This document shows, piece after piece, positions 20,823-51,300 of a DNA stretch of 64,000 bases (the stretch's first letter is position 1; each line of letters starts with the position of its first letter). The notes below the pieces were generated by a model. That model was not told the origin of the DNA. It did no database searches and saw only the letters and a program-made list of their open reading frames with translations. The position numbers and the translations under genes were made by a program. Source of the stretch: a virus; the IMG/VR virus record IMGVR_UViG_3300020416_000001, positions 1 to 64,000 of that record, one strand, 5' to 3'.

Positions 20823-21018
20823 GTTTTTCGAAACCACCTCGGACTTGCCATATTCGAGGAATTGGTATAAAATATGGTGCAAAGACAACTCAGTTAAAAT
20901 CGTGGAGTCTTATGAAGAAGTGCAAACCGCTTGGTGGAACTTCGCACATCACATTTCACACATTGAAGTTATCGATGCCAAACGAACAAAAGGAGGGAAA
21001 AGCAGGGGATTCTCTTAA
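20806..21018 (+). CDS. hypothetical protein
   Basis: ATG at 20806; FFETTSDLPY...YEEV..WW...IEVID...GF. Confidence 0.7.
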   Translation: MNASPEFFETTSDLPYSRNWYKIWCKDNSVKIVESYEEVQTAWWNFAHHISHIEVIDAKRTKGGKSRGFS

Positions 21019-21202
21019 AATTGCAATAGGAGAAGACGGTCAGATTACCCTTGATTGGGATGATAATGACCCCCATTGGAACTTTTTATCAAAACTATCC
21101 ACTAATGAGGTACAGGAATTTGTCGAATCAGCAATCAAAAACGGACTTGGATCTATTGATCTCTCTAGCGAAATTGTTGAACCAGAAAGTGACGCATCTT
21201 GA
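20975..21202 (+). CDS. hypothetical acidic protein
   Basis: ATG at 20975; 'DSLKI....DG..TLDWD..DP.W.FL..L' pattern. Confidence 0.65.
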   Translation: MPNEQKEGKAGDSLKIAIGEDGQITLDWDDNDPHWNFLSKLSTNEVQEFVESAIKNGLGSIDLSSEIVEPESDAS

Positions 21203-21461
21203 TTACGTCAACTATCTACAATCACACTTAAATACCGTAATTTGTGAACTTGAACGACAACAGACCTTACTGGAGTCCGATGAACTTAAATTCATTCAAG
21301 AAAACAACGGTGGACATATCAGGAGAGATCTTGATGCACTAGGGGAGAACATTGACTTCGGTGAAGTTGATCTCACGACACCCATTGCAGGCACTACATT
21401 CTCAGTCCCTGACACAGTTGAACATTCTGACTATTATTGGCAAACAGATAGGAACACATAA
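21105..21461 (+). CDS. hypothetical protein
   Basis: ORF with 'YLQSHL..V..ELERQ' helix; start uncertain. Confidence 0.55.
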   Translation: MRYRNLSNQQSKTDLDLLISLAKLLNQKVTHLDYVNYLQSHLNTVICELERQQTLLESDELKFIQENNGGHIRRDLDALGENIDFGEVDLTTPIAGTTFSVPDTVEHSDYYWQTDRNT

Positions 21462-21527
21462 AGTTATGCGAACTTATACTTAGTTGTATTAAATAGCAAT
21501 AAAACTTTGTTATGATTTCTTAACTTT

Positions 21528-21535
21528 TATAAGTA
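21528..21535 (+). promoter_or_regulatory. late promoter-like TATAAGTA
   Basis: One mismatch to TATAAATA, in AT-rich intergenic DNA. Confidence 0.45.
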
Positions 21536-21604
21536 GTATCAGAATTGTGGAGGGAAAAATGAACCCTAACTTTATTATTATGAATCAAGTTACGAGTGAG
21601 TATT

Positions 21605-21763
21605 ATGCACAATTTAATAGCAAAGGAGCAAATGGCAGAGTGGTCAGTTGACCACACCGACGATGAAATGGATTTAATCAACGACTATTTCGACTGTCTA
21701 ATCGAATGTTCTATTGAACAACACCCACACGAATGCAAACGGATTTGTAGGGACACTTGGTAA
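21605..21763 (+). CDS. small four-cysteine protein (52 aa, not in ORF track)
   Basis: MHNLIAKEQMAEW...INDYFDCLIECSIEQHPHECKRICRDTW*. Confidence 0.75.
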   Translation: MHNLIAKEQMAEWSVDHTDDEMDLINDYFDCLIECSIEQHPHECKRICRDTW

Positions 21764-21764
21764 G

Positions 21765-21825
21765 TAGGACAATTCAAGAACTGACCACCAGACACCCCCT
21801 CTGGTGGTTTTTTATGTGCTATAAT
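21765..21825 (+). promoter_or_regulatory. palindrome + -10 promoter unit 1 (degenerate)
   Basis: taggacaattcaagaactgaccac, 31 nt, then TATAAT at 21820 preceded by TGc (extended -10). Confidence 0.6.
21784..21813 (+). terminator. intrinsic terminator
   Basis: accaccaga/tctggtggt 9-bp stem followed by a T run. Confidence 0.75.
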
Positions 21826-21848
21826 TTGGGTATCAAACAGGGGAGTGA

Positions 21849-23120
21849 ATGACAGTCAATCTACGCAAGCACCAACAGAGAGCAGTTGACGCGATGAAGC
21901 GTCACACAAAAGGTCAGATCATCGTGCCTACAGGCGGTGGTAAAACAATGTGTATGATTTATGACTGTCTCCGCCAGTTGAACAGCAACAGCAACAGCAC
22001 AATCATTGTTGTAGCACCTCGTATCCTACTCGCTAATCAGTTGAGTGAGGAGTTTCTACAGTTTATGAAGGCAGATTGGGTATATCCTTATCACGTCCAC
22101 TCAGGCGAGACTCATCACGAGTCAGGTACAAAACCAGATAAACTTGCTCAGTTCATCAAGGACAACAAAGCAAAGAATGCAGTTGCTACTCACATCATCT
22201 TTACAACATATCACTCATTGAGAAGAGTTGTTGAAGCAGTTACACGTCATCAACTTGAGATCGATGTAGCATATTTTGATGAAGCACACAACAGCGTAAC
22301 ACGCAATTTCTTTGATTCAACCGAGGACATCAGTTATATTTCAAAGAGAACATACTTTTTTACTGCTACCCCTCGTATCCACAACAGAGGTAGGCACAAC
22401 AGAGGTATGAACAACACTAAGGTGTATGGTCAGATCATTCAACAAGTACCCGCACCAGAATTGATTGAATCAGGTTCTATCATCCCACCTACTATTGTGC
22501 CATTTGAGCAAGATATTGAGCGTGTAAAGAAAATGAGTTGGGATACTGACGCTCAAACAGTCCTAGATGTACTTGACACACTTGACAGTAAGAATGCTCA
22601 GAAGGTGCTATGTGCCGTCCCTAGCAGTAAGATTCTAGGTAATATGCTAGGTCAGACCAACTTGCTTGATGAGTTGAAGAAACGCGGTTACGATGTTCTA
22701 CACGTTACCAGTAAATTCGGTGCATATGTCAATGACAAGAAGGTAAATCGTGAGAAGTTTTTCGAGACAATGGATTCATTCGGACGTGACGATGACAGAA
22801 AATTCATCATCTTTCACTATTCTATTTTGAGTGAGGGCATCAACGTCCACGGATTGACCCATACTATTCTATTGAGACAACTTCAAACCGTCGAAATGGC
22901 ACAGACTATTGGTAGAGTCATCCGCCTACATAAAGAGGACGCAAAGCGTATTCGCTCAGGCGAAATCGTAGCAGGTAAACTTGATATGTATCGTAAACCA
23001 ACTGGTTACGTTACAGTTCCTACCTATACGAACTATGGTAAGCACATCGCTAAGCGTTTACAAAACGTTGTAGATGCGATTTTCGTACACGGAATTCATC
23101 CCGAGTCACTAGTTGCATAA
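21849..23120 (+). CDS. superfamily 2 DEAH helicase (ResIII-like)
   Basis: LRxHQ Q-motif, PTGGGKT, DEAH, TAT, SEGINV, QTIGRVIR. Confidence 0.9.
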   Translation: MTVNLRKHQQRAVDAMKRHTKGQIIVPTGGGKTMCMIYDCLRQLNSNSNSTIIVVAPRILLANQLSEEFLQFMKADWVYPYHVHSGETHHESGTKPDKLAQFIKDNKAKNAVATHIIFTTYHSLRRVVEAVTRHQLEIDVAYFDEAHNSVTRNFFDSTEDISYISKRTYFFTATPRIHNRGRHNRGMNNTKVYGQIIQQVPAPELIESGSIIPPTIVPFEQDIERVKKMSWDTDAQTVLDVLDTLDSKNAQKVLCAVPSSKILGNMLGQTNLLDELKKRGYDVLHVTSKFGAYVNDKKVNREKFFETMDSFGRDDDRKFIIFHYSILSEGINVHGLTHTILLRQLQTVEMAQTIGRVIRLHKEDAKRIRSGEIVAGKLDMYRKPTGYVTVPTYTNYGKHIAKRLQNVVDAIFVHGIHPESLVA

Positions 23121-23155
23121 ATAACTTTAACAAAGTACAGTTACAGAGATTGACA

Positions 23156-23584
23156 ATGGCAACAAGTCAAGTTAATGGATGGGCAGATCAGTTGCTCACT
23201 AAATTATCTGAGAAGGCAAAGGCATACCGCCTTGCAACTATTGATAAAAGACTAGCAGAAGGTGTTGGCACAACTGCTGAGATCGCTAGGACATTGCACT
23301 CAGGTGTGAACGTATTGGTCACTAAACGTGAGAAAATAGTAGCGGATGATGCTTCAGTAACGTGGACATTCGCAAAGGCGGATGATGGCGAAGACATCAA
23401 AATTAGTGCTACCGCACCCTCGGATAGGGGCGGACATACAAAAGATTTACTCTGGATTGAGGGTTCTACTGGTAAATGTAAGAAACTCAAAGGAGATCTA
23501 TACAACGTAGATGCTAACAGTCTCGACGATACTTATCGTGAGACATTCTTTGGCAAGGTAACACATTTGGGAACATTCTGGTAA
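23156..23584 (+). CDS. hypothetical protein, probably late-expressed
   Basis: 142-144 aa; CATAAATA at 23116-23123 upstream. Confidence 0.7.
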   Translation: MATSQVNGWADQLLTKLSEKAKAYRLATIDKRLAEGVGTTAEIARTLHSGVNVLVTKREKIVADDASVTWTFAKADDGEDIKISATAPSDRGGHTKDLLWIEGSTGKCKKLKGDLYNVDANSLDDTYRETFFGKVTHLGTFW

Positions 23585-23588
23585 ACAC

Positions 23589-23647
23589 TAGGACAATTAA
23601 ATAACTGTACCACTAGACCCCCACAGGGGTCTTTTTTATGGCATTAT
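23589..23647 (+). promoter_or_regulatory. palindrome + -10 promoter unit 2
   Basis: taggacaattaaataactgtacca, 29 nt, then CATTAT preceded by TGg. Confidence 0.6.
23615..23637 (+). terminator. intrinsic terminator
   Basis: agacccc-caca-ggggtct followed by a T run. Confidence 0.8.
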
Positions 23648-23653
23648 ATAAGA

Positions 23654-23817
23654 GTAAGGGAAACAACTTAGACGGTTGCTATACCCGAAACTCTCATTTG
23701 TGGGGTTATCCTACTAAGATATGAGTCAGTAGGGGTACAGGTGTAAGCGATTCCTATAGCGTAAATTTGGACTCTTGAGTGAAACTCATTACAGTAGTCC
23801 CGCGTTGTTCCCCTTAC
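23654..23817 (+). ncRNA. candidate structured non-coding RNA (~165 nt)
   Basis: Own promoter unit, no + strand ORF, 13/14-bp terminal stem (23654-23667 with 23804-23817) and several internal stems. Confidence 0.6.
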
Positions 23818-23826
23818 AACACCCAC

Positions 23827-23885
23827 TATGACAGTTGATAAACTGCACACCTATCTCACACAGGAAGCAGAATCAACGTTATAGT
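23827..23885 (+). promoter_or_regulatory. palindrome + -10 promoter unit 3
   Basis: tatgacagttgataaactgcacac, 29 nt, TATAGT. Confidence 0.7.
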
Positions 23886-23890
23886 ATAAA

Positions 23891-23945
23891 TGTTGAGAGC
23901 GTTGCTCACATTCACAATCGCTGAGGGATACCCTCGCTCTCAACA
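23891..23945 (+). other. structured 5' leader
   Basis: tgttgagagcg/cgctctcaaca 11-bp stem enclosing a gaggg-ata-ccctc hairpin. Confidence 0.6.
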
Positions 23946-23970
23946 CATAATTCACACACAACTTAATACG

Positions 23971-24132
23971 ATGACCAGAGTACAAATCACATTACTAGTT
24001 GAAGTTGACACCGAGGACGAAGTTAATTGCCCTGACGGTGACCCTATCACACAAAACGTAGTAGTCAACGCAGTTGACAATGATTTCTTTCTTGACCCTG
24101 TAACTGTATTAGATGCGAGGATAGTAGATTGA
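23971..24132 (+). CDS. small acidic hypothetical protein
   Basis: ATG 23971 (MTRVQITLLVEV...) is preferred because the 23890 start lies inside the leader stem. Confidence 0.65.
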   Translation: MTRVQITLLVEVDTEDEVNCPDGDPITQNVVVNAVDNDFFLDPVTVLDARIVD

Positions 24133-24302
24133 TAAACCTAAAACTCACAAGAGAACAGTTCGAAGAGATTTATGATGCAGTCAGAGATCTACCTGACATT
24201 TATAAATCAGAACTAAAAGAATCAGGCGATGAACCCGACGCTGCACACATCGACCTATTTGATGCAGTCAACATAATGAAGGAGATTTATGAATCATACT
24301 AA
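24129..24302 (+). CDS. small acidic hypothetical protein (57 aa, not in track)
   Basis: TTG start overlapping the previous stop, GAGG upstream; INLKLTREQFEEIYDAV... Confidence 0.6.
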   Translation: MINLKLTREQFEEIYDAVRDLPDIYKSELKESGDEPDAAHIDLFDAVNIMKEIYESY

Positions 24303-24612
24303 CAACAAAAAAGAATTTACAATCGCTCTATCTCGTAGAGAACTAGGACTATTACATTACTATACTAGAGGACTAGTTGCAAGAATTGACAGCGACGTAA
24401 CAGACTGGGGTTCTAGTTGTACTGGTCACGATACTATAGAGCACGATGACTATGGTAAGGACGCGATTCTAGGATTATTCAAACAAGTTAAACCACTTGT
24501 TGAATCTAACTATGGCACACAGTTCGAAGACTGGCAACAAATGACTCTCAAGGTCAATCCACAAACTGTCACACCCGAACCACTAGACCTTGCACCATCC
24601 TCTATAATATAA
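24289..24612 (+). CDS. hypothetical protein
   Basis: 107 aa with AAGGAG SD. Confidence 0.7.
   Translation: MNHTNNKKEFTIALSRRELGLLHYYTRGLVARIDSDVTDWGSSCTGHDTIEHDDYGKDAILGLFKQVKPLVESNYGTQFEDWQQMTLKVNPQTVTPEPLDLAPSSII
24550..24608 (+). promoter_or_regulatory. palindrome + -10 promoter unit 4
   Basis: aaggtcaatccacaaactgtcaca, 29 nt, TATAAT. Confidence 0.7.
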
Positions 24613-24631
24613 GAGTAAAGCAAACAACTCA

Positions 24632-24820
24632 ATGATTATTATGACACCTGATCTTGATTTGCTACTTTCATATGAAAATGGCACTATAACTGAAGATGAT
24701 TTCTTTTTCCTCTTTCAACAAATATATGACACTAAGGCATATCAATGGTTGCAGGGGCATTACGGTAGAACTGTTCAACTATTACTAGAGGAGGGATTGA
24801 TTTATGAGTCGTCCAAATAG
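24632..24820 (+). CDS. hypothetical protein (WLQGHYGRT family)
   Basis: 62 aa directly after the promoter leader. Confidence 0.75.
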   Translation: MIIMTPDLDLLLSYENGTITEDDFFFLFQQIYDTKAYQWLQGHYGRTVQLLLEEGLIYESSK

Positions 24821-25010
24821 AGATTTAACTTTTGATGAACTGGACGCACTTTGGGAATTGACTCAAGTCGCATCTCATCAACAATTAAATCAACTTGAGA
24901 AGACTTTTACAGTCAGGTTTCGAGTTATTCGCAAGAAACTAGACAGTATGAGCACAACTCAAAGAAACACATACTTGAAAAAAGTAAACATCCCTGACCC
25001 ACAATGGTAA
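24804..25010 (+). CDS. hypothetical protein
   Basis: 68 aa with GGAGG SD. Confidence 0.65.
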   Translation: MSRPNRDLTFDELDALWELTQVASHQQLNQLEKTFTVRFRVIRKKLDSMSTTQRNTYLKKVNIPDPQW

Positions 25011-25291
25011 TTAGAAAAATGAATCAAAACTCAGATCTTGAAGGTGCTAACCTTATCCGCACAATGTCACAAAGTGAACTAGACACATTCAAAGAGGTAT
25101 TTGTAGAGCGTTACATTGAAAATTGTACTGTTGAGCAATTAGAGCAAATTGCACGAGATTCAATGATTGACTACGCTAACAATGTATCAGAGAATGATTT
25201 GATCGATGAATTGATCGGATACGGTGGCGAGGAATTTGTAGATGAGTGCCTAGAGGAGTCTAGGGAACTCGTTGCACTTCGCAACAAATAA
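25004..25291 (+). CDS. hypothetical acidic protein
   Basis: 95 aa. Confidence 0.7.
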   Translation: MVIRKMNQNSDLEGANLIRTMSQSELDTFKEVFVERYIENCTVEQLEQIARDSMIDYANNVSENDLIDELIGYGGEEFVDECLEESRELVALRNK

Positions 25292-25350
25292 TATGACAGT
25301 TTGACAAGTGTCACACACATACACTATTATGGAGCATACACCCCTATAAT
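25292..25350 (+). promoter_or_regulatory. palindrome + -10 promoter unit 5
   Basis: tatgacagtttgacaagtgtcaca, 29 nt, TATAAT. Confidence 0.8.
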
Positions 25351-25375
25351 AATTACATAAGCAACAGACAAACAA

Positions 25376-25879
25376 ATGCAAGTGACCACACCCGAAGCAA
25401 GATACCAACAACTATTTGAAGCAATGTATGAACTTTGCGATCAACAGGGATGGGGAGACCCATTCAGTTACGCGAGGTCTAGAGAGATTCATCTAGCAGG
25501 TATTTTAGGTCACTCAGTTGCTGACGATTATAGCGGTGCGGATGCATTTGACGCTGATGGAAACCCAGTAGAGTATAAATCTACTATAGGTAAGAAACTG
25601 ACTGCTACATACAACGGCATTTCAGTTCAAGATACTTGGGACAATCAAGTCAAGTATCTTAAAGAGGAAAAAATCGGCAAGTACAAAGATCATTTTTTCG
25701 CACGCTATTCAAATGGTCAAGTTGTTGAGGTCTGGCAAATGTCAGGCGATGACGTCTTGAAATTGCTTTTACCTAGTCTAAAAAAGCAATTCTATTCTAC
25801 AAAAGTTAGAAAAGATCCCAGACTAGGTTATACTATCCCATTCAAACAGATTCAAAACTATGGACAACGAATTAAGTAG
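25376..25879 (+). CDS. putative PD-(D/E)xK restriction-endonuclease-like protein
   Basis: SRE...GADAFDADGNPVEYKS matches the E...D-x(n)-ExK nuclease core. Confidence 0.6.
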   Translation: MQVTTPEARYQQLFEAMYELCDQQGWGDPFSYARSREIHLAGILGHSVADDYSGADAFDADGNPVEYKSTIGKKLTATYNGISVQDTWDNQVKYLKEEKIGKYKDHFFARYSNGQVVEVWQMSGDDVLKLLLPSLKKQFYSTKVRKDPRLGYTIPFKQIQNYGQRIK

Positions 25880-26090
25880 AATCGAAGAGTATGACTCAGA
25901 GATTAATCCTAAGATGCAGGAAGCAATCGACGTGCTAGGAGAGCACTATATGAAGCAAATTGCAGGATTAATTGAGAATAATCGATTTGATGATGCTGAC
26001 GCAATTTATAAAGAATTTGTTGTAAATGGATGTGACCCCGAAGATGGTAACTATGAGTGGATATTTTTGGATGATATGTTGGACAGTTGA
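25860..26090 (+). CDS. hypothetical acidic protein
   Basis: 76 aa. Confidence 0.7.
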   Translation: MDNELSRIEEYDSEINPKMQEAIDVLGEHYMKQIAGLIENNRFDDADAIYKEFVVNGCDPEDGNYEWIFLDDMLDS

Positions 26091-26137
26091 ATAACTGGCA
26101 CACAACTACACTATTCACATACAACACACACTATAAT
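26079..26137 (+). promoter_or_regulatory. palindrome + -10 promoter unit 6
   Basis: ttggacagttgaataactggcaca, 29 nt, TATAAT. Confidence 0.8.
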
Positions 26138-26160
26138 AATAATATACAAAACAAAACACA

Positions 26161-26409
26161 ATGAACTCAAAGGCAATTTACACAACACCAGTAAACAGAA
26201 TCAAACAGAAAGTTTTATTCAACGATGGTTTAAGCAGATTGACCCATATATGTGCTAACTGGGCGGAGTATGTTCAAGAGTTAGCAGAGTGGGGTATCAC
26301 AACAAACAACACTCTAGCAGGTGTGAACTTAAATAATCTATCCGAGTGGGATATTCAGTATCTTGACATCTTTATCAAGAATCAGAACGGTTACGAGGAG
26401 GAGGTTTAA
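26161..26409 (+). CDS. hypothetical protein
   Basis: 82 aa after an A/C-rich leader. Confidence 0.7.
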   Translation: MNSKAIYTTPVNRIKQKVLFNDGLSRLTHICANWAEYVQELAEWGITTNNTLAGVNLNNLSEWDIQYLDIFIKNQNGYEEEV

Positions 26410-26411
26410 TA

Positions 26412-26633
26412 ATGTCACAACAGCACATTTTCGCAGACCCTACAGAACTTGAAGCAAGATATGGTTTCAGTTACGAAGCATTAGAGCAATTTGAAGCAGT
26501 ATTTCGCTATCTTGATGAGGAAGCAGACCCTAGTCTAGTTGATGAGATTAAAACAAGTGATGTAGGTTTAGAGCAATTAGTTAACTTTGCAACTGAGTTA
26601 AGAGTATTCGATGGAGTCAATTTAGATGCTTAA
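26412..26633 (+). CDS. hypothetical acidic protein
   Basis: 73 aa with GGAGG SD. Confidence 0.7.
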   Translation: MSQQHIFADPTELEARYGFSYEALEQFEAVFRYLDEEADPSLVDEIKTSDVGLEQLVNFATELRVFDGVNLDA

Positions 26634-26790
26634 TATTCCTATTACTTTCGATCAGTCCTATCAAATGATAAAATTATGGGACACTCTCAGAGATATGGAT
26701 TTCGAACTGACTGACGAGCAAACAGCAGTATTTGAACTCATTCAAACAGGCGATTATCTAGTTAAGGAGCATCCAAAGAATGAAAACTGA
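26626..26790 (+). CDS. small hypothetical protein (54 aa, not in track)
   Basis: MLNIPITFDQSYQMIKLWD...; GGAG SD. Confidence 0.6.
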   Translation: MLNIPITFDQSYQMIKLWDTLRDMDFELTDEQTAVFELIQTGDYLVKEHPKNEN

Positions 26791-26890
26791 TTTACTTCTT
26801 AAAATCTACATTGCTGCTAAAAAGGAAGCGAAGAAGAAAAAAGCAATCAAACCAATTAGAACACATTACAACGCACATTCATTTGGTTGA
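26780..26890 (+). CDS. small basic protein (36 aa, not in track)
   Basis: MKTDLLLKIYIAAKKEAKKKKAIKPIRTHYNAHSFG*; AAGGAG SD; stop abuts the palindrome. Confidence 0.6.
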   Translation: MKTDLLLKIYIAAKKEAKKKKAIKPIRTHYNAHSFG

Positions 26891-26949
26891 TGTGACAGTC
26901 ACATAAGTGGCACACAGTTTTACCATATGCCACACAGAGTGACTATAAT
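26891..26949 (+). promoter_or_regulatory. palindrome + -10 promoter unit 7
   Basis: tgtgacagtcacataagtggcaca, 29 nt, TATAAT. Confidence 0.8.
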
Positions 26950-26973
26950 GTTAATATACAAAAGAAAACACAA

Positions 26974-27165
26974 ATGGCACAATCACACAGAACACCCACA
27001 AAAGGACTAAACATCGATTTGACTATTGGTCAGTATCAACACCTTTATGATCTCGTTTGCGATGCATATGACCGAGGTTATGACCAGAGACCTAGAATCG
27101 ATACTCAAACTTTTGATAATATGTTTGATGCTATTTGTAACGCAAAGTCAACTTACCTTAAATAA
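26974..27165 (+). CDS. hypothetical protein
   Basis: 63 aa. Confidence 0.7.
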   Translation: MAQSHRTPTKGLNIDLTIGQYQHLYDLVCDAYDRGYDQRPRIDTQTFDNMFDAICNAKSTYLK

Positions 27166-27171
27166 TAAATT

Positions 27172-27333
27172 ATGAGATATTCAATCCACGTCCCAACCGC
27201 ACCATTTGAAAATACAAGTTTTGTAAACTTGGATGACTGTTGGAGTCTTTGCTATGATCTAGCACAAGAATATGGATATGCTGAGGTTAGATATGGAAAT
27301 TGTCTAATGGGTTCTTATTGTGACAGAGATTAA
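27172..27333 (+). CDS. small hypothetical protein (53 aa, not in track)
   Basis: MRYSIHVPTAPFENTSF..LDDCW.LCYDLAQEYGYAEVRYG... Confidence 0.65.
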   Translation: MRYSIHVPTAPFENTSFVNLDDCWSLCYDLAQEYGYAEVRYGNCLMGSYCDRD

Positions 27334-27377
27334 ACTGTCACACAATTATCCTATTTAATCAACATAACCTTTATAAT
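27319..27377 (+). promoter_or_regulatory. palindrome + -10 promoter unit 8
   Basis: tgtgacag-agattaaa-ctgtcaca (perfect 8-bp arms), 29 nt, TATAAT. Confidence 0.8.
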
Positions 27378-27400
27378 ATTACTATACACAGGAAAACAAA

Positions 27401-27604
27401 ATGAATTACGATCACGAATTTTATGTAACTCAAAAGTGCACAACATACAAATACTATACTGTTGTTGCTGCAACTATGGAGGAAGCAAAAGAGAAAATCG
27501 AGGATGATGATATGGATTTACAGGACTGGGAAGAATTTGACTATAAAACAGTTGAAATCGAAGAGCAAGAGATACCAGTTCAACAACTGGCACTCGCCTT
27601 ATAG
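27401..27604 (+). CDS. hypothetical acidic protein
   Basis: 67 aa, 'V.A.T.EEA.E' pattern. Confidence 0.7.
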   Translation: MNYDHEFYVTQKCTTYKYYTVVAATMEEAKEKIEDDDMDLQDWEEFDYKTVEIEEQEIPVQQLALAL

Positions 27605-27630
27605 ACTTCACACCCATTACCCTCTATAAT
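27571..27630 (+). promoter_or_regulatory. palindrome + -10 promoter unit 9
   Basis: gataccagttcaacaactggcact, 30 nt, TATAAT. Confidence 0.75.
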
Positions 27631-27653
27631 ATTACTATACACAGGAAAACAAA

Positions 27654-27917
27654 ATGCACAACTTTCAAGAATTCTCAGACTACATCGAAATGTTCTATTG
27701 CCCTGAGCACCCTGACTGTTTATATCCTATCGAAGGATTAACTAAGGGCGAGATCGCAATCGCAATACTTAACTATCTTGACCTATGTGCAGATAATGAG
27801 AATATTAACTGGGGCGATGGCGATTCACTTGATCGCGAGCGTGTAAGGGATATTATTAAGGACAATAGAGCAAAGGACTATAGATCAGTTTTGAGTATCA
27901 TAGGAGTTCAAAAGTGA
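27654..27917 (+). CDS. hypothetical protein (GDSLDRERVRD family)
   Basis: 87 aa. Confidence 0.75.
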   Translation: MHNFQEFSDYIEMFYCPEHPDCLYPIEGLTKGEIAIAILNYLDLCADNENINWGDGDSLDRERVRDIIKDNRAKDYRSVLSIIGVQK

Positions 27918-28126
27918 AAAATTACAACACATACGAGACATTTTCAGAAATAAGTGTGGGCGATACAGTTGCCTACACTAATGAGAATGGCAAGAGAATC
28001 ATAGGGCAAGTTATTATAAGATGGGGCAAATATTGTGACCCCCAACTTGAAATATGCAACGATGACTCAATTAACTACTACCCAGTAAAGGATTACACTA
28101 AATGCAAAGTTTTGGAAAGGTTCTAG
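27914..28126 (+). CDS. hypothetical protein (SH3/KOW-like)
   Basis: 70 aa, GTG start with AGGAG SD; 'VGD.V......G.V' pattern. Confidence 0.65.
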   Translation: MKNYNTYETFSEISVGDTVAYTNENGKRIIGQVIIRWGKYCDPQLEICNDDSINYYPVKDYTKCKVLERF

Positions 28127-28184
28127 TGCCAGTTTTATTAGTGGCACACACTATAATGATTTTACAGCAATCATCCTCTATAAT
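28125..28184 (+). promoter_or_regulatory. palindrome + -10 promoter unit 10
   Basis: agtgccagttttattagtggcaca, 30 nt, TATAAT. Confidence 0.8.
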
Positions 28185-28207
28185 ATTAGTATAAGACAAA
28201 AAACACT

Positions 28208-28585
28208 ATGACTACACAAACACCAGTTAAACTAGACACATATCAAAAATTACTAGTTGACAGAATTGACACATACGGAACAGGGGACTGGAAAAATAAT
28301 GTCTCAATACATCATAAGCACGATTCTAGTATGTTCTCAAATATTTTGATCGGTCGCGAAGTTGTTGCTAAGGTAGTTTATGAAGTGCCATCCGAGGATA
28401 TATCCGCCGATGATTATAGAGCGATTCACATCGATAAGACCAAAAAAGCGAAAGTTTCTTATATCGCATTTGGCAATGATATTTGGGCATATCGTAGTCC
28501 AACACAAGTTTCAAGATATAGAAACATTTTGAAAAAACTCGGTTATCTCATCATTCAAGTAGATAACAAAGTTATTCAATACTAG
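28208..28585 (+). CDS. hypothetical protein
   Basis: 125 aa. Confidence 0.7.
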   Translation: MTTQTPVKLDTYQKLLVDRIDTYGTGDWKNNVSIHHKHDSSMFSNILIGREVVAKVVYEVPSEDISADDYRAIHIDKTKKAKVSYIAFGNDIWAYRSPTQVSRYRNILKKLGYLIIQVDNKVIQY

Positions 28586-28596
28586 TCAAGCGATGG

Positions 28597-28655
28597 TGTG
28601 ACAGTTTAACTAGTGTCACATCATCACACCATACTCACACATTACCCACTATAAT
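28597..28655 (+). promoter_or_regulatory. palindrome + -10 promoter unit 11
   Basis: tgtgaca-gtttaactag-tgtcaca, 29 nt, TATAAT. Confidence 0.8.
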
Positions 28656-28682
28656 AAGAATATACAAACGAGGTTAAAACAA

Positions 28683-28850
28683 ATGTCACAAGAAAAAACT
28701 TTCACTTACACTTTCACTCAAGCACAAGATGACGTGCTAGTTCAAATGATAAGATATTTCAATGAGTTGGGAGTTGGTGGCGATATGAACGAAGATGATT
28801 TTGATTCACTTGTTGATGTCGTTTGCAATCATCCTAACTCAGTTGCTTAA
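28683..28850 (+). CDS. small acidic protein (55 aa, not in track)
   Basis: MSQEKTFTYTFTQAQDDVL...FDSLVDVVCNHPNSVA*; GAGG SD. Confidence 0.7.
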   Translation: MSQEKTFTYTFTQAQDDVLVQMIRYFNELGVGGDMNEDDFDSLVDVVCNHPNSVA

Positions 28851-28854
28851 GACT

Positions 28855-29028
28855 ATGAACATTTTTAAGTACACAATCCACACCCCTAAGTTATTCAACA
28901 GCGAAGTATTCACGGATGACTTAGACAGAGCGAAGCAATTAGCAACAGAATTTGGTCAAGACTACGATTTTAGTTTTGTTGTTGATAATGCTACAAATAA
29001 AACTATTTTCGAGGGAGTTCGATGGTAA
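28855..29028 (+). CDS. small hypothetical protein
   Basis: ATG 28855 (MNIFKYTIHTP...) is preferred over 28795. Confidence 0.6.
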   Translation: MNIFKYTIHTPKLFNSEVFTDDLDRAKQLATEFGQDYDFSFVVDNATNKTIFEGVRW

Positions 29029-29099
29029 CACTTATCTCAATACTTTTAATAGTATTCATTCTTTTAATTATTGTCAACTATTACAATCCACACAACTAA
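29022..29099 (+). CDS. 25-aa single-pass membrane peptide (not in track)
   Basis: MVTLISILLIVFILLIIVNYYNPHN*; GGGAG SD. Confidence 0.55.
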   Translation: MVTLISILLIVFILLIIVNYYNPHN

Positions 29100-29100
29100 A

Positions 29101-29250
29101 ATGATTTTCATTACTACATCCGTCCCTACTTACGATTTTCCTAGTAGTCCTATTCTTTGGTTAGGGTTCTTAGGTATCCTAGTAGCAGTATTTACAGTTT
29201 ACACAGTAAATAAAGCATATTTCAATAGTCCACTTAATCAAGATAAATGA
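29101..29250 (+). CDS. 49-aa single-pass membrane protein (not in track)
   Basis: ...PSSPILWLGFLGILVAVFTVYTVNKAYFNSP... Confidence 0.6.
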   Translation: MIFITTSVPTYDFPSSPILWLGFLGILVAVFTVYTVNKAYFNSPLNQDK

Positions 29251-29308
29251 GACAGTTAAGACTCATCAATTTTAGATTAACACAATGACCTAGGACACCC
29301 CCCAAATA

Positions 29309-29367
29309 TGTGCCAATTTTATTACTGTCACACTCTAACAACTAAAGAGTACAATTTGCTCTATAAT
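29309..29367 (+). promoter_or_regulatory. palindrome + -10 promoter unit 12
   Basis: tgtgccaattttattactgtcaca, 29 nt, TATAAT. Confidence 0.8.
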
Positions 29368-29389
29368 AAGTATAACAACACAGATAACG

Positions 29390-29518
29390 ATGACAAACGA
29401 ACAACGCTACAAAAATTTCCTAAAGTGGGAAGCAATGATACAGAGACGCGAAGCACGTCTTGCCAACAAAGCAGAAAAATTTCTTAATGCACATTTTCAA
29501 ATCGTGGAGGTCAAGTAA
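29390..29518 (+). CDS. small basic protein (42 aa, not in track)
   Basis: MTNEQRYKNFLKWEAMIQRREARLANK...; first ATG after unit 12. Confidence 0.6.
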   Translation: MTNEQRYKNFLKWEAMIQRREARLANKAEKFLNAHFQIVEVK

Positions 29519-29677
29519 ATGAGTTGCCTACAAAATGAAATCTTAATGGAAAATCTTTTTGAAGAAGAGTATGCAGCAATGCAAGAGAGTGGTCTAGCGG
29601 ATACACTCACACCCGAAGCATTACAGGAGCATTGCGAGTTTATTGCAAAAGAGCGATTTTGGGACTTAGCAGAGTGA
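29519..29677 (+). CDS. small acidic protein (52 aa, not in track)
   Basis: MSCLQNEILMENLFEEE...AKERFWDLAE*; GGAGG SD; its TGA is part of the next palindrome. Confidence 0.7.
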   Translation: MSCLQNEILMENLFEEEYAAMQESGLADTLTPEALQEHCEFIAKERFWDLAE

Positions 29678-29731
29678 CAGTTATGAAAGTGGCACAACTT
29701 GCCACTATTCTCACTCTATCCCCTCTATAAT
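29673..29731 (+). promoter_or_regulatory. palindrome + -10 promoter unit 13
   Basis: agtgacagttatgaaagtggcaca, 29 nt, TATAAT. Confidence 0.8.
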
Positions 29732-29761
29732 AATTACATAAGCAACACAGGAGTAACACCG

Positions 29762-29956
29762 ATGGCATACAGAGCAACTAAGCAAGAGGTTCTAACACAG
29801 TTCAGATATAACTGGAAAGTCGCTACAATGCAGAATCCTAGACTTAAGGGCGATGTAGTTGCCAAACGTGAAGACTGGAATAATTTTGTTGATGCATTGA
29901 ATAAAGATGGATATGTATCAGACAATCAAGCATATAACTGGACAAATCCATTCTAA
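29762..29956 (+). CDS. hypothetical protein (REDWNNFVDAL.KDG family)
   Basis: ATG 29762 with AGGAG SD. Confidence 0.75.
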   Translation: MAYRATKQEVLTQFRYNWKVATMQNPRLKGDVVAKREDWNNFVDALNKDGYVSDNQAYNWTNPF

Positions 29957-29961
29957 GAACT

Positions 29962-30249
29962 ATGAACGACATTTTCACTAACACACAACTTTTATTAAAC
30001 AATCTCACAATCCGCCCACAAATGACTAAAGATCAATTTATTGAAGAAGTTTATGAAATAGCATTTGGCGATAATGCTATTAATCGCGATTTCGCATTTG
30101 ATGAAGTAATAGAGAAACTTCGCGAGTTTTCAGACAATGCTCTCATATTTGAAGAGAGCGGGTTTACAGAGAGCGAACTAGAGGAACTAAGCAACAAAAG
30201 ATTTTCTAATCTTGAATCAACAGCACCCGATTATGGAGTAGGCAAATGA
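29962..30249 (+). CDS. hypothetical acidic protein
   Basis: 95 aa, 'FIEEVYEIAFGDNAINR' motif. Confidence 0.7.
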   Translation: MNDIFTNTQLLLNNLTIRPQMTKDQFIEEVYEIAFGDNAINRDFAFDEVIEKLREFSDNALIFEESGFTESELEELSNKRFSNLESTAPDYGVGK

Positions 30250-30371
30250 GAGTGGTTTTTACTATCATCGTTTTTTTACTAGGATTAAATCTTATTGTTG
30301 ATCTTAGCAATTCTAACCTGATCGAACTACTAAACGAGAGACAGCAGCAGATTGAAAACGTCACTAAGTGA
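30246..30371 (+). CDS. 41-aa membrane-anchored peptide (not in track)
   Basis: MRVVFTIIVFLLGLNLIVDL...; GGAG SD; TGA lies inside the next palindrome. Confidence 0.6.
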   Translation: MRVVFTIIVFLLGLNLIVDLSNSNLIELLNERQQQIENVTK

Positions 30372-30425
30372 CAGTTGACAAAGTGGCACACACAGGCGAG
30401 CATCCGCCTCGGTATCCACTATAAT
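30367..30425 (+). promoter_or_regulatory. palindrome + -10 promoter unit 14
   Basis: agtgacagttgacaaagtggcaca, 29 nt, TATAAT. Confidence 0.8.
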
Positions 30426-30456
30426 ATTAGTATAAGCAACACAGGAGCACACACAA

Positions 30457-30786
30457 ATGCGTAAGATCGAAACACAAATGAATCAAGCAATCAGAGCACA
30501 AAAGAACTGGGCAGGTTCTAATACCACAGTTTTTACTTCTGATAATGGTCTTGAGTCAACTGTTTACTTACACGGCAATCACATCGCAACATATTTTCAC
30601 GCTGAGCGTAAAATCCAATTATTCGATGGCGGTTGGCAGTCTAATACAACTAAGTCACGTTTGAATGCATTACTTGACGAATTTGCATACGGCACTTATG
30701 TATTTCAAAAAAACTGGTCTTGGTTTATCGCTAGAAACTTCAACCCAAATCACAAATCTGATTTTGTAAGTGGTGTTACCATATAG
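30457..30786 (+). CDS. conserved phage hypothetical protein (MRKIE..M / TTKSRLNA family)
   Basis: 109 aa; VYLHGNxIA and GGWQSNTTKSRLNAL motifs. Confidence 0.8.
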   Translation: MRKIETQMNQAIRAQKNWAGSNTTVFTSDNGLESTVYLHGNHIATYFHAERKIQLFDGGWQSNTTKSRLNALLDEFAYGTYVFQKNWSWFIARNFNPNHKSDFVSGVTI

Positions 30787-30815
30787 TTGACATAAGTCAC
30801 TATATAGACTATAAT
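30787..30815 (+). promoter_or_regulatory. perfect sigma70 promoter TTGACA-N17-TATAAT
   Basis: Exact consensus and spacing. Confidence 0.85.
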
Positions 30816-30817
30816 AC

Positions 30818-30844
30818 AGGGGACTAAATCAGTCCTCTTTTTTT
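30818..30844 (+). terminator. intrinsic terminator ending the cassette island
   Basis: aggggact-aaatc-agtcctct followed by a T run. Confidence 0.75.
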
Positions 30845-31489
30845 ATGCATAATCCTAAAGAACTAAGCGACGATTTCGAGGGCATCCAACAGACAAATGT
30901 CTATGGTCTTTTTATGTCTCCCGTAGGCAATTTTACCAATAAGAACCACGATAGAGACAAAAAATTAATTACTGACTTTATTAATCAATGCTCTAAAGAA
31001 GATTTATTCCAGTCCCCTAACAGCGATATATGCCACGGTGTGACGCAAATAGGTCAAAATAACGTATTAGATCATCCCTTACTTAAGGAGGTCAAGCAGA
31101 GCATTCTCACGGCAGTAAATGAAGTGAATGACAATGCACTTAAGTATGACCTAAGCAGTATGGAGTTAATTGACTCTCATATCGAAGTTGCTAGTCAGTC
31201 GTCAATCTATGCCCCGCACGAGTTTTCAAACTGTCTTTATAGTGGATGCTACTTCATTAACTACGATGCAGAAAAGCACGCCCCTCTAAAATTTAAGCGA
31301 ACAACTCAGTCAACATTTTACCCAATAATGCAATGTAAGCAAACTGGACTAACGCCTTTTAATTTACTTGATGCGAGTGTGCCCACGGTAGAAGGGGATA
31401 TTATTATTTTCCCTAGTAACTTAACTCACGGTTACGAGACTAACGGCGAGCACAATCGAATTACTTTAACCTTTAACGTATCACCCTAA
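30845..31489 (+). CDS. 2OG-Fe(II) oxygenase-like protein (TIGR02466-like)
   Basis: PH..SN..YSGCYF, EGDIIIFPSxLxHG, RITLTFN. Confidence 0.8.
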   Translation: MHNPKELSDDFEGIQQTNVYGLFMSPVGNFTNKNHDRDKKLITDFINQCSKEDLFQSPNSDICHGVTQIGQNNVLDHPLLKEVKQSILTAVNEVNDNALKYDLSSMELIDSHIEVASQSSIYAPHEFSNCLYSGCYFINYDAEKHAPLKFKRTTQSTFYPIMQCKQTGLTPFNLLDASVPTVEGDIIIFPSNLTHGYETNGEHNRITLTFNVSP

Positions 31490-31490
31490 A

Positions 31491-31835
31491 ATGAACCCAT
31501 TCAAAAAAATTGATGATTCAACCTATCAGGATAGCGACGGCACACTATACAAACCTATCCCCCTATATGAAGATTATTATGTTTCGAACCTAGGGAACAT
31601 ATATTCAACTAAGTGGGGTAAATGGAAAAAATTGAAAATTCATCTAAATGAAAATGGTTATCGTCGTGTAACCCTAAGGCAGAATGGTAAGACAGTAGTA
31701 AGGCGAGTTGCGAAACTTACCGCACTTGCATTCATCTCGGCACACTCTAGTCAGGTTAACGTATTACACAGGGATGGTAATAAACTGAATGACCACGTTA
31801 ACAATCTGAAACTAGCAAATCAAGCAATTTCATAA
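31491..31835 (+). CDS. NUMOD4/HNH endonuclease-like protein
   Basis: KPIP.YE..YYVSNLGNI, GYxRVxL, VLHRDGNKLNDHVNNL. Confidence 0.8.
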   Translation: MNPFKKIDDSTYQDSDGTLYKPIPLYEDYYVSNLGNIYSTKWGKWKKLKIHLNENGYRRVTLRQNGKTVVRRVAKLTALAFISAHSSQVNVLHRDGNKLNDHVNNLKLANQAIS

Positions 31836-48300: not shown

Positions 48301-51300
48301 AGGTTATACAGACTCTAACGCAACTGCTCCTGACGATATGTGGGTTGCGTTGATGGATATTGACGGATCTATTATGGAGAAGCGTAAGATCGCTTCTGCT
48401 GCTGCTAGTGAGCATCTACATCAAGTCGAATGGAGAACTGACGATACATTCCTCTTCACTGGTATCTCTGACCCTGCAGGTGCTGCTAACATCATTCTTG
48501 GTGAAACATACTATGATACTGCAACTATCGAGGTTGTATGGTCTAAACAAATTGAATCTGCTGCTTATCAGTTTGCTGATCCTACATTTACTATTGATGA
48601 ATACGGTTCAGTTTATGTAACTGCAACTGCCATTGACACAAACGGTAAGAATTACGGTGTTCTTTATTGTAAGTTTGATAATCAGGACTATACAGCAGTA
48701 TCTGTGTCTAAGATGTACGTTCCTACAGGAAATTACACATCTTGTAAGAATGCAGGTGTTGCTTTTGATGTATTTGGTAATATTGACGTCAGTGCACTTG
48801 TTGAGAGAGATTTCAACGATGTTCAATCAGTTACTGCAAAAATTTCTTGGAACAGTGGCAACATTCTTTCTGCTGCTGAAGCAAAAGAAGATTCTGGTAT
48901 TGGTTATCATCCAACTTGTGTTGCAAATGACAACTCTGGTGATACTTTGGTTGCAGGTAATAAGGTTGAGGCACAGCAACTTGCAATCTTCAACTGGAAC
49001 ACTGCAGACAACCTCTTTGATGAAACATACAATGACACTCTAAAAACTGGTACTAACAAGCAGTGGTATGCAACTGGTAACGCTGTTATTGATAACACCA
49101 AGTTTTATAACGGTGCTTCTTCAGTAAAACTTGATGCACCTAACTCATTGCTCCTCCAATACAGCACAACTGCTGATGTTAGTGTTGAGTGGACAATGGA
49201 AGGTTGGTTTGCTCTTGGTGCTACTCAATATGCTGCACAAGCATCTAAACCTGAATTCTTCGGTATTTACTCTCAGTTAGCACAAGAAGTCAAGGTTGGT
49301 GTTGATGGTACTTCAGGTAGTGCTAATTTTGGTAAGATCTTCCTTGATCTAAATGGAACTACATCATATTCAACTGGTACAGCATTCTGGACTGGATTTA
49401 ACTCAGAGGCGTGGGTTCACGTTGCTATTTCTAAGGAACGCCCTGGTGTTGGTTCTTACATCTATCGTATATACGTCAACGGTGTAGAGGCACATTCAGT
49501 AACTAGTGCCAGTGTTGATGTCAATATGATGCAGGTAACTCTTGGTCCTATCTCAACTCCAAGTTCTCAGAACAACTGGATTGGTTGGGTTGACAACTTT
49601 GTGGTTACACCTTCTGCTAAGTACACAGATGCATTCACTGCAGGACTGATAACTGGTACAAACAAAGTTACTGAAGCATTCATCTATAAGATTGACAAGG
49701 ATAAGACAAAACTTGGAACATTTACTCTAAACGATGTAGAGACTGGACATACTCTTACAACTTCCGCCACAAGCAATTATACGTTTAATACCCAACCTGT
49801 ATCTGTTAACCCTTGGTTGATCGGTCCTGCAGGTATTCAGATTCTTGATTACTCTGATGTTGTATCAACTCACGTCCCTGGAGTTTATACCGTAACATCT
49901 ACTGATGAGGCGTGGGCAAGTAGAACTGCTACTATTCCTACACAAGGTGGTAAGAAACTACTCTTAACTACTAAGGTTATTCCTAAGTTCTATATTAGAG
50001 ACGCAAAATACACTAGTATTGACCTTGTTAAGACAATTACATTCAATCAACCTGCAACCTTTACAAAAGGAACTGTTCTTCAGCAGTATTCTACTATTGG
50101 TGGTAACGATGTTGTATCAGCATATGGTACTGTTGTTGAGGTTGGAACTAGTTCTTGTAAGATCGGTAAGATTATTGGTTCGTTTGATACCTCTAAACTT
50201 CTTAAATCTACCGCAGGTGATGTAAACGAGACAGATAAAGAGTTTACAGTTCTAACTACAACTCCTGTCTGGGAACAAAACCAGAACTATGATGTTGGTG
50301 ATATTGTTTATAGTAACGGTAAGATCTATACATCTGGTACTGCTGCAACTGCAGGTCCTATTGCTCCTAATCATACATCTGGTACTGTCTCTGATGGTAA
50401 CATCAACTGGGCATTTACAAGCGTTGCAGGTACCTTCTCAGTAGATTTGGCGAATAGCGTACACGGTTCAGGTACTCTTGCACAGTTTGCATCTTGGAAA
50501 CCTTTCAATGCTTCTGACTATACTATTAGAATCCAACAGATCTATGATGATTCAGACTTCATTAAGGGTGACACCATTGATGCTGATGCTGTTAACTTGA
50601 CATTTGATGTTGATGCAACTGGTAAGATCGCAACATTTGGTGGTCTTGTTGGTGTTAAGCAGTTCAATCTTCAGGCAAAACTCAATAAAGACGTTATTCC
50701 TTCACAGGGACTAACAAATACTGATCTTGTTTACTGCTCTGCTAATACCAGACATAACTTTGCAGCAACTGACATCATCTTTACTGAAGGATTCTCCACT
50801 AATGAATACAACGGTTCATTCTTTGTGGAAGAAGTATTCACTTCTAGAGACTTTACATACAAATTAAGAAGCACTGCTGTTCAGGATCCAACATTCTCAG
50901 GTTCAGGTTCTTCTGTTTCTAACGTTAATATCTTTGCTAAGCATCCTAAGTTCCTATTTGTTAGAGGACATCAGTATATCTTTGACCTTGACGATTCTTC
51001 TAACCTTGGATACTACCTATCATTCTCTAAAGATAACCAGTATAAACTTGAATATCCATTCATTAACATCATTAGAGAGGGTACACCTGGATTTACTGAT
51101 GATGATTCACCAACTCCATTGGTTAAATTCGTCATCAATGATGATGTTACTAACATTTCATACTACTTTGACCCATCTAGAACCACAGCAGACAACTCTC
51201 CTGTTGGTGAAGGGTCATTTATTGACGTTATTGAGTCTCCTTACCAAGGTACATTTACAATTTCGAAGGTTTCTTCCGATGGATTGGAGTTTGACTTCCC

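Follow-up and report, generated by a model that had tools for sequence, protein, structure and literature searches.

A fourteen-unit array of probable activator-dependent promoter cassettes, each headed by a conserved dyad, in an uncultured T4-like cyanophage

The window analysed here, the first 64,000 bp of a 171,756-bp virus record (IMG/VR record IMGVR_UViG_3300020416_000001, completeness estimate 94%), carries an array of fourteen small-gene units between positions 21765 and 30786, each of which is headed by a 24-bp palindromic dyad at a near-constant distance from a -10 box. The array is probably a series of activator-dependent, and probably early, promoter cassettes that are served by a dyad-bound factor, most likely of host origin and with PlmA as a candidate, and its repeated units also act as breakpoints at which related phages gain, lose and reorder cassettes. 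We regard it as an instance of a cassette type that has reportedly been described for this group of phages.

The consensus of the dyad is TGTGMCAGTT-N4-WASTGKCACA, spanning approximately -65 to -42. All fourteen palindromes that had been proposed in the original prediction are present. Scored against TGTGACAGTT-N4-AACTGTCACA, the ten strong copies (25292-30367) carry 2-6 mismatches and the four degenerate copies at the upstream end of the array (21765, 23589, 23827, 24550) carry 5-7; at three mismatches or fewer, the consensus is matched 17 times with both strands counted, against the 0.07 matches expected from shuffles. A recount of the distance from the end of the dyad to the -10 box returned the offsets that were first read, namely 29 nucleotides (nt) in 11/14 units, 30 nt in 2/14 and 31 nt in 1/14, and the hexamer is an exact TATAAT in 12 of the 14. 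The predicted lack of a consistent -35 element also held, as the best match to TTGACA at a spacing of 16-18 nt reaches no more than 3/6 positions in 12/14 units, and a conserved TG extension of the -10 box is absent from the 14 window units. Relative to a start predicted 7 nt past the -10 box, the centre of the dyad computes to -53.5 to -55.5, close to the -53/-54 estimated at the outset. The leaders are A/C-rich and 16-25 nt long, and lead, as had been described, into one to four mostly tiny genes per unit, the majority of which belong to PHROG or Pfam families without a known function, such as Kyano_Gp96 and DUF7326. Between the units of the window, spacers are 40% identical, arms 72% and the -10 block 80%, and the geometry of the unit is evidently kept by selection rather than by recent duplication. 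The genome-wide motif search that the original prediction had called for, done as a position weight matrix scan of all 171,756 bp, found only two units beyond those of the window (locus L294), one at 111604 upstream of a 721-amino-acid protein without a Pfam match and of unknown function, and one at 113838 upstream of a CobS-like AAA_5/CbbQ_C ATPase.

The same unit is widespread among cyanophages. The pattern GACAGTT-N4-AASTGKCACA occurs exactly in at least 120 IMG/VR contigs; of the 140 matches listed from this exact scan, 74 are followed by a -10-like hexamer at a distance of 29-31 nt. When one unit was compared by BLAST with 50,697 phage records, 49 records matched; 44 of them belong to phages of Synechococcus or Prochlorococcus, and the other five are chance-level hits. 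That the motif class is shared with cyanophage Syn9, as had been suggested in the original prediction, proved correct: the dyad followed after 29 nt by a -10-like hexamer is found in the small-gene regions of both Syn9 (48558, 51000, 51211 and 52996, with two more sites elsewhere at 127492 and 148742) and P-TIM40 (an array at 48884-55024, with a further site at 157277). The Syn9 sites at 48558-52996 lie among gp72-gp90, adjoining the helicase gene gp75 and before a baseplate gene, an arrangement that is syntenic with the window. Pooling the genome of the window with Syn9, P-TIM40 and 120 IMG/VR loci gave 442 unique dyad contexts, in which the -10 offset is 29 nt in 162 cases, 30 nt in 65, 28 nt in 18 and 31 nt in 13, with scattered counts elsewhere. 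Among the pooled dyads the 29-nt spacer holds at most 0.4 bit of information per position, and a conserved A stands 7 nt past the -10 box, followed by an A/C-rich leader; the -35 is mostly weak in the relatives.

From its presence in the right region of Syn9 and P-TIM40, we take the dyad unit of the window to be an element that has been described before. A novel regulatory element reportedly controls the early genes of these two phages, and such elements are reported to be abundant among T4-like cyanophages (Doron et al. 2016, ISME J 10:1437). The phage group is the same, as is the region of small genes beside the helicase and baseplate genes, and the unit is likewise abundant in metagenomic cyanophage contigs; the published element differs in that it was reported from Syn9 and P-TIM40, whereas the genome of the window belongs to a divergent uncultured relative.

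From this anatomy we infer the following mechanism. The dyad would be bound as double-stranded DNA by a dimeric or higher-order protein of the winged-helix type, and the bound protein would recruit or stabilise the host RNA polymerase, substituting for recognition of a -35, the outcome being one co-regulated and probably early class of transcripts. The original prediction had likewise invoked a dimeric factor replacing the -35; the promoter-like anatomy that this entails has stood up, with rigid spacing in 442 contexts and arms that vary independently, and the replacement itself is a reading of the sequence, as are the activity of the promoters, their early timing, the choice of activation over repression and the assignment of the protein. 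A literature search found no paper naming a factor that binds the dyad, and we know of no identification of the protein that reads the first promoters of T4-like cyanophages. The factor would most likely be supplied by the host, for which the best candidate would be the GntR-family regulator PlmA (PMM1637), which is specific to cyanobacteria.

PlmA is a GntR regulator found only in cyanobacteria, and it is tied to the PII-PipX nitrogen and energy network and to the induction of Yfr2 by high light and nitrogen stress. The motif CGRE1 was bound by PMM1637/PlmA in a pull-down and in electrophoretic mobility shift assays, for the host yfr2 and yfr4 promoters only (Lambrecht et al. 2018, PMC6191309). 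It is located 55-57 nt upstream of the yfr2 starts in Prochlorococcus and marine Synechococcus and is linked to the induction, not the repression, of yfr2, and phage are mentioned only in a reference of that paper (PMC6191309). We located Yfr2 genes in host genomes with the Rfam model RF01701 and compared 53 upstream regions. The host site consists of AACTGKCACA abutting TGTGMCAGTT, which are the two 10-bp words of the phage dyad, degenerate at the same positions but in everted order; this everted arrangement is present in 21/81 Cyanobiaceae genomes, with 32 matches as compared to seven for a control pattern. At two mismatches or fewer, TGTGMCAGTT is found in 27/53 of the yfr2 upstream regions, 88-97 nt (in one case 101 nt) from the Yfr2 core. 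In those 27 regions TANNNT hexamers peak 43-44 nt past the half-site, which is the phage distance of 4+10+29/30; in phage and host alike, 43-44 nt thus separate the end of the shared half-site from the -10 box, and the predicted position of the half-site is approximately -56. The likeness extends slightly beyond the half-site, as a WAS triplet follows the same 4-nt gap as in the phage: TAG or AAC, comparable to the first three bases of the phage right arm, stands there in 20 of the 27 regions.

An everted upstream partner, allowing one mismatch, accompanies the half-site in 12/27 of the yfr2 regions that bear it. About half of the yfr2 promoters with the half-site (L226, L227, L296, L300, L307, L318 and others) show only TGTGACAGTT-N4-TAG... 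in this position. Since these promoters do without the everted partner, the published palindromic CGRE1 is not the sole form of the host site.

Likeness to the half-site of CRP, which had been pointed out in the original prediction, turns out to be superficial. Class I and class II sites of CRP and NtcA do resemble the dyad in their outer TGTG...CACA words and in lying upstream of a promoter without a -35, but the outer words of the CRP site are 6 nt apart (TGTGA-N6-TCACA, 22 bp) and those of the phage 14 nt apart, within 10-bp half-sites and a site of 24 bp. A CRP/NtcA site was rejected on this spacing; the half-site of CGRE1/PlmA is closer and stands in the same register.

Several points nevertheless weigh against reading the array as a set of rigidly spaced promoters that borrow PlmA. 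The relatives behind the 442 contexts were gathered by position weight matrix and by exact pattern, which biases the sample towards the version of the motif present in the window. The -10 boxes of the host yfr2 promoters were assigned by pattern rather than from mapped starts. The full downstream arm of the phage dyad never occurs in the host yfr2 promoters, all of which have three or more mismatches to it; the full phage dyad, at up to three mismatches, was not found in five host genomes; and a phage-type core is not more common than the control in 81 host genomes (six places versus ten). Because the full dyad was not found in those five genomes and its core is at control level in the 81, the phage site is not a plain copy of a host site. 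Furthermore, the arms of CGRE1 abut and are everted, forming a site of 20-22 bp with GTTG/GTTA flanks, whereas those of the phage are inverted around N4 with the second arm on the promoter side, and no everted copy is present upstream of the phage dyads of the window. A single rigid symmetric dimer would be unable to bind both arrangements. As one half-site is shared in register but the strong partner arm is on the promoter side in the phage, PlmA is a candidate and not a conclusion, favoured by the identity and register of the half-site and disfavoured by the arrangement of the arms. That T4-like cyanophages borrow PlmA to start their infection programme is put forward as a tentative idea with PlmA as candidate for the binding: moving the partner arm to the promoter side would produce a site that hosts do not use and that could hold PlmA beside the RNA polymerase.

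The dyad might instead be read by a phage protein, either delivered with the virion or the product of an unrecognised early gene, in which case the host likeness would be mimicry or chance. The arm arrangement, unlike that of the host site and not enriched in host genomes, would suit such a factor, and the many small cassette proteins without a known function offer potential candidates for it. We consider this unlikely, however, as the half-site, its degenerate positions and the -10 register all match host yfr2 promoters, and as a search of the phage genome for GntR-type domains gave none, leaving a self-encoded PlmA-like factor unsupported. Generalist cyanophages, including Syn9, express their early genes even in resistant strains (PMC6708340), which fits a factor that is common to all cyanobacteria, although a virion protein would fit too.

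It is also rather improbable that the dyad is an operator at which a phage or host repressor silences the cassette promoters, either throughout or once the early phase is over. Conservation and a fixed position of the dyad would suit a repressor equally well, and with the consensus TATAAT in 12/14 units such promoters may fire unaided in cyanobacteria. Yet the site, at about -65 to -42, is upstream of the core promoter and not on the -35, -10 or +1 elements where most repressors act, and a missing -35 is the usual mark of dependence on an activator. The association of the host relative, CGRE1, with yfr2 induction (PMC6191309) points in the same direction, and activation from the dyad is thus the preferred reading.

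A further possibility is that the preceding cassette has the palindrome at its 3' end as a hairpin of RNA or single-stranded DNA, which would act as a terminator, stabiliser or processing site in the manner of PeSLs (promoter-early stem-loops), the repeated stem-loop-plus-early-promoter units of T4-type phages. The dyads lie exactly between cassettes and often overlap the upstream stop codon, PeSL stem-loops are located just upstream of early promoters (PMC4122927), and stable folding is predicted for some copies (-17.8 kcal/mol at 28597, -11 at 27319). The arms, however, do not covary. Among the 258 dyads with a -10 box at 28-31 nt, the observed Watson-Crick fraction is close to that expected from the make-up of the columns (0.48 versus 0.43 at pair 5-20, 0.32 versus 0.36 at pair 8-17), the mutual information of mirrored positions does not exceed 0.04 bit, and the most frequent combinations are the mismatches A.G at pair 5-20 and G.G at pair 8-17. 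RNA folding of nine copies gave -2.1 to -17.8 kcal/mol, five of the nine hardly exceeding shuffles in stability, if at all (|z| < 1), and no T-run or U-tract follows the dyad. Terminators occur in the window array only at units 1 and 2, and also in many relatives, and there they are separate GC-rich hairpins between the dyad and the -10 box. It is the sequence itself, beyond its pairing, that is conserved across many contigs, with an invariant core of G4, C6 and A7 in the left arm and T18, G19 and C21 in the right. The lack of covariation between the arms, the erratic stability of the hairpin and a spacer constant in length yet free in sequence together argue for a double-stranded DNA site with two half-sites that are likely contacted by protein, and against a stem-loop. 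The reading as an RNA hairpin or terminator was rejected on the missing covariation and the poor folding, and we regard it as very unlikely. The outer end of the promoter-side arm (CACA) is better conserved than that of the distal arm (TGT), and the dyad is, therefore, polar.

The rearrangement of cassettes among the relatives resembles that of PeSLs, a link not drawn in the original prediction. PeSL exchanges occur between the repeated units in T4-type phages (Arbiol 2010, PMC2839356; Comeau 2014, PMC4122927), having been studied in RB49/phi1, T4/PST and KVP40/nt-1, with cyanophages not being treated (PMC2839356, PMC4122927). As there, the window comes from a T4-like phage whose small ORFan genes form a hyperplastic region, each group of them headed by a palindrome-plus-promoter unit, and insertions, deletions and reorderings among relatives are bounded by units, in the array of the window as well. 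The two systems differ in that PeSLs have a near-consensus -35, which the window units lack, and in that the GC-rich stem-loop of a PeSL terminates transcription, whereas the palindrome of the window is sequence-specific, often mismatched and without a U-tract.

When the open reading frames (ORFs) of the window were mapped on ten related IMG/VR loci, whole cassettes were found to be present, absent or reordered, with dyad-promoter units at their boundaries. L272-L274, L281 and others have their cassettes in another order; in L274, the o24-o25 cassette comes after o09-o10 rather than after o21-o23, the o15 cassette is near the end, and o11, o17 and unit 2, which has no ORF, are absent. Blocks of nucleotide homology between the window and L274/L272 end at 23651, 23895, 25288, 26154, 26886, 27621, 28598, 29374, 29722 and 30364, most of them within approximately 10 nt of an element of a unit (dyad start, -10 box or predicted start), and some window units align to non-orthologous units in these two loci. 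Nothing in L272 and L274, the closest relatives, corresponds to the ORF-less stretch 23652-23894 that follows unit 2, an indel bounded by units 2 and 3. A search of the 172-kb genome (94% complete) for a tyrosine recombinase (PF00589) found none, and ordinary homologous exchange between the repeats is therefore the simplest cause of the rearrangements. That the dyads are sites of a dedicated, integron-like site-specific recombination that captures and shuffles cassettes is hardly credible, since, although relatives differ in the presence and order of cassettes and break at the units, no such recombinase was found in the phage genome, the breakpoints fall anywhere in the unit of about 70 nt (dyad start, -10 box or leader), as in homologous exchange and in PeSLs (PMC2839356), and the fixed distance to the -10 box would be left unexplained.

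The array offers nothing new in kind, being a clean fourteen-unit example in a divergent uncultured phage, but it sharpens an idea that can be tested at the bench, namely that the half-site and register of PlmA have been kept while the order of the arms has been changed. Were PlmA indeed borrowed, early phage transcription would be coupled to the stress state of the host. T4-like cyanophages are responsible for the death of a large share of the main primary producers of the ocean. The cassette comparisons add that the units mark the places where related cyanophages swap accessory genes.

The source of the window is, as judged from its genes, an uncultured and divergent T4-like cyanomyovirus (Kyanoviridae) without a close sequenced relative. 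This assignment is based on the gp6 baseplate protein, which is 54-58% identical to its homologues in the Synechococcus phage S-SZBM1 and in P-RSM6, P-TIM40 and S-WAM1, and on the psbA gene carried by the phage genome, which has 84-88% identity to cyanobacterial copies. The large genes of the window encode T4-type tail and baseplate proteins, two tryptophan-halogenase-like proteins and 2OG-Fe(II) oxygenases. A megablast of the whole array against the 50,697 phage records gave no match, a tRNA search of the window found none, and no known RNA family was detected by Rfam at E <= 1 in 21000-31500, the ORF-less unit 2 included. The array occupies a plastic region of small genes between the helicase gene and the baseplate genes. 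Upstream genes terminate at or within the following dyad, often with a stop codon that overlaps it, and packing is therefore tight.

All units are on the plus strand. Unit 1 (21765..21832) has a degenerate dyad, TAGGACAATT-N4-AACTGACCAC, with TATAAT at 21820, the one offset of 31, and a terminator hairpin at 21783-21809 that overlaps the right arm; its cargo is a UvsW-like helicase with ResIII and Helicase_C domains (21849-23120), followed by an ORF of 144 amino acids, whereas the other units carry ORFs of 36-167 residues. Unit 2 (23589..23654) combines a degenerate dyad with a weak -10 box, CATTAT at 23642, and a terminator hairpin at 23615-23632 between the two, and no ORF follows it. The dyad of unit 3 (23827..23892) is degenerate as well, with TATAGT at 23880 and ORFs at 23890/23971-24612, while unit 4 (24550..24615) has a degenerate left arm and the right arm AACTGTCACA, TATAAT at 24603 and ORFs at 24632-25291.

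The strong copies begin with unit 5 (25292..25357), which reads TATGACAGTT-N4-AAGTGTCACA, has its -10 box at 25345 (offset 29) and carries ORFs of 167 and 76 amino acids. Unit 6 (26079..26144; TTGGACAGTT-N4-AACTGGCACA; -10 box at 26132) is followed by four ORFs at 26161-26890, and unit 7 (26891..26956; TGTGACAGTC-N4-AAGTGGCACA; -10 box at 26944) by ORFs at 26974-27333. A single ORF (27401-27604) belongs to unit 8 (27319..27384), in which TGTGACAGAG-N4-AACTGTCACA precedes a -10 box at 27372. The two offsets of 30 are found in unit 9 (27571..27637; GATACCAGTT-N4-AACTGGCACT; -10 box at 27625), with ORFs at 27654-28126, and in unit 10 (28125..28191; AGTGCCAGTT-N4-TAGTGGCACA; -10 box at 28179), with one ORF at 28208-28585. 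Unit 11 (28597..28662) reads TGTGACAGTT-N4-TAGTGTCACA, with the -10 box at 28650 and ORFs at 28683-29250, and unit 12 (29309..29374) reads TGTGCCAATT-N4-TACTGTCACA, with the -10 box at 29362 and ORFs at 29390-29677. Units 13 (29673..29738) and 14 (30367..30432) both read AGTGACAGTT-N4-AAGTGGCACA; their -10 boxes are at 29726 and 30420, and they carry ORFs at 29762-30371 and a gene of 109 amino acids of the Kyano_Gp96 family at 30457-30786, respectively.

The array ends at 30786. The segment that follows (30787..30838, plus strand) is a promoter-terminator composite without a dyad, in which a perfect TTGACA-17-TATAAT (30787-30815) precedes a hairpin with a T-run (30818-30838), just before a 2OG-Fe(II) oxygenase gene at 30845. 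As the promoter of this next gene is a perfect sigma-70 promoter that does without a dyad, the genome would contain at least two classes of promoters.

Units 8 and 9 share a 56-nt stretch that is 86% identical (27365-27420 versus 27618-27673) and extends from the -10 box through the leader into the first codons, which looks like a recent local duplication or an exchange between adjacent cassettes. At +7 to +12 past the dyad, which is where a -35 would be, the word CACTAT is present in the units at 25292, 26079 and 29673, and CACTACC is in the same position in the P-TIM40 units at 50295-55024; this word is not general, as many relatives have TTGAA/TTGAC or a terminator hairpin there. Lastly, one host genome (G022, Cyanobiaceae; L268 1498-1700, contig 1 near 114044) carries a dyad of the phage type, GGTGCCACTT-N4-AACTGGCACA, with TAAATT 29 nt on. 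Next come a short stretch of transcript size that has a terminator and, after it, a tyrosine integrase gene, and a second dyad core lies 14 kb away; the locus looks like an integrated or island element that uses the phage type of promoter.

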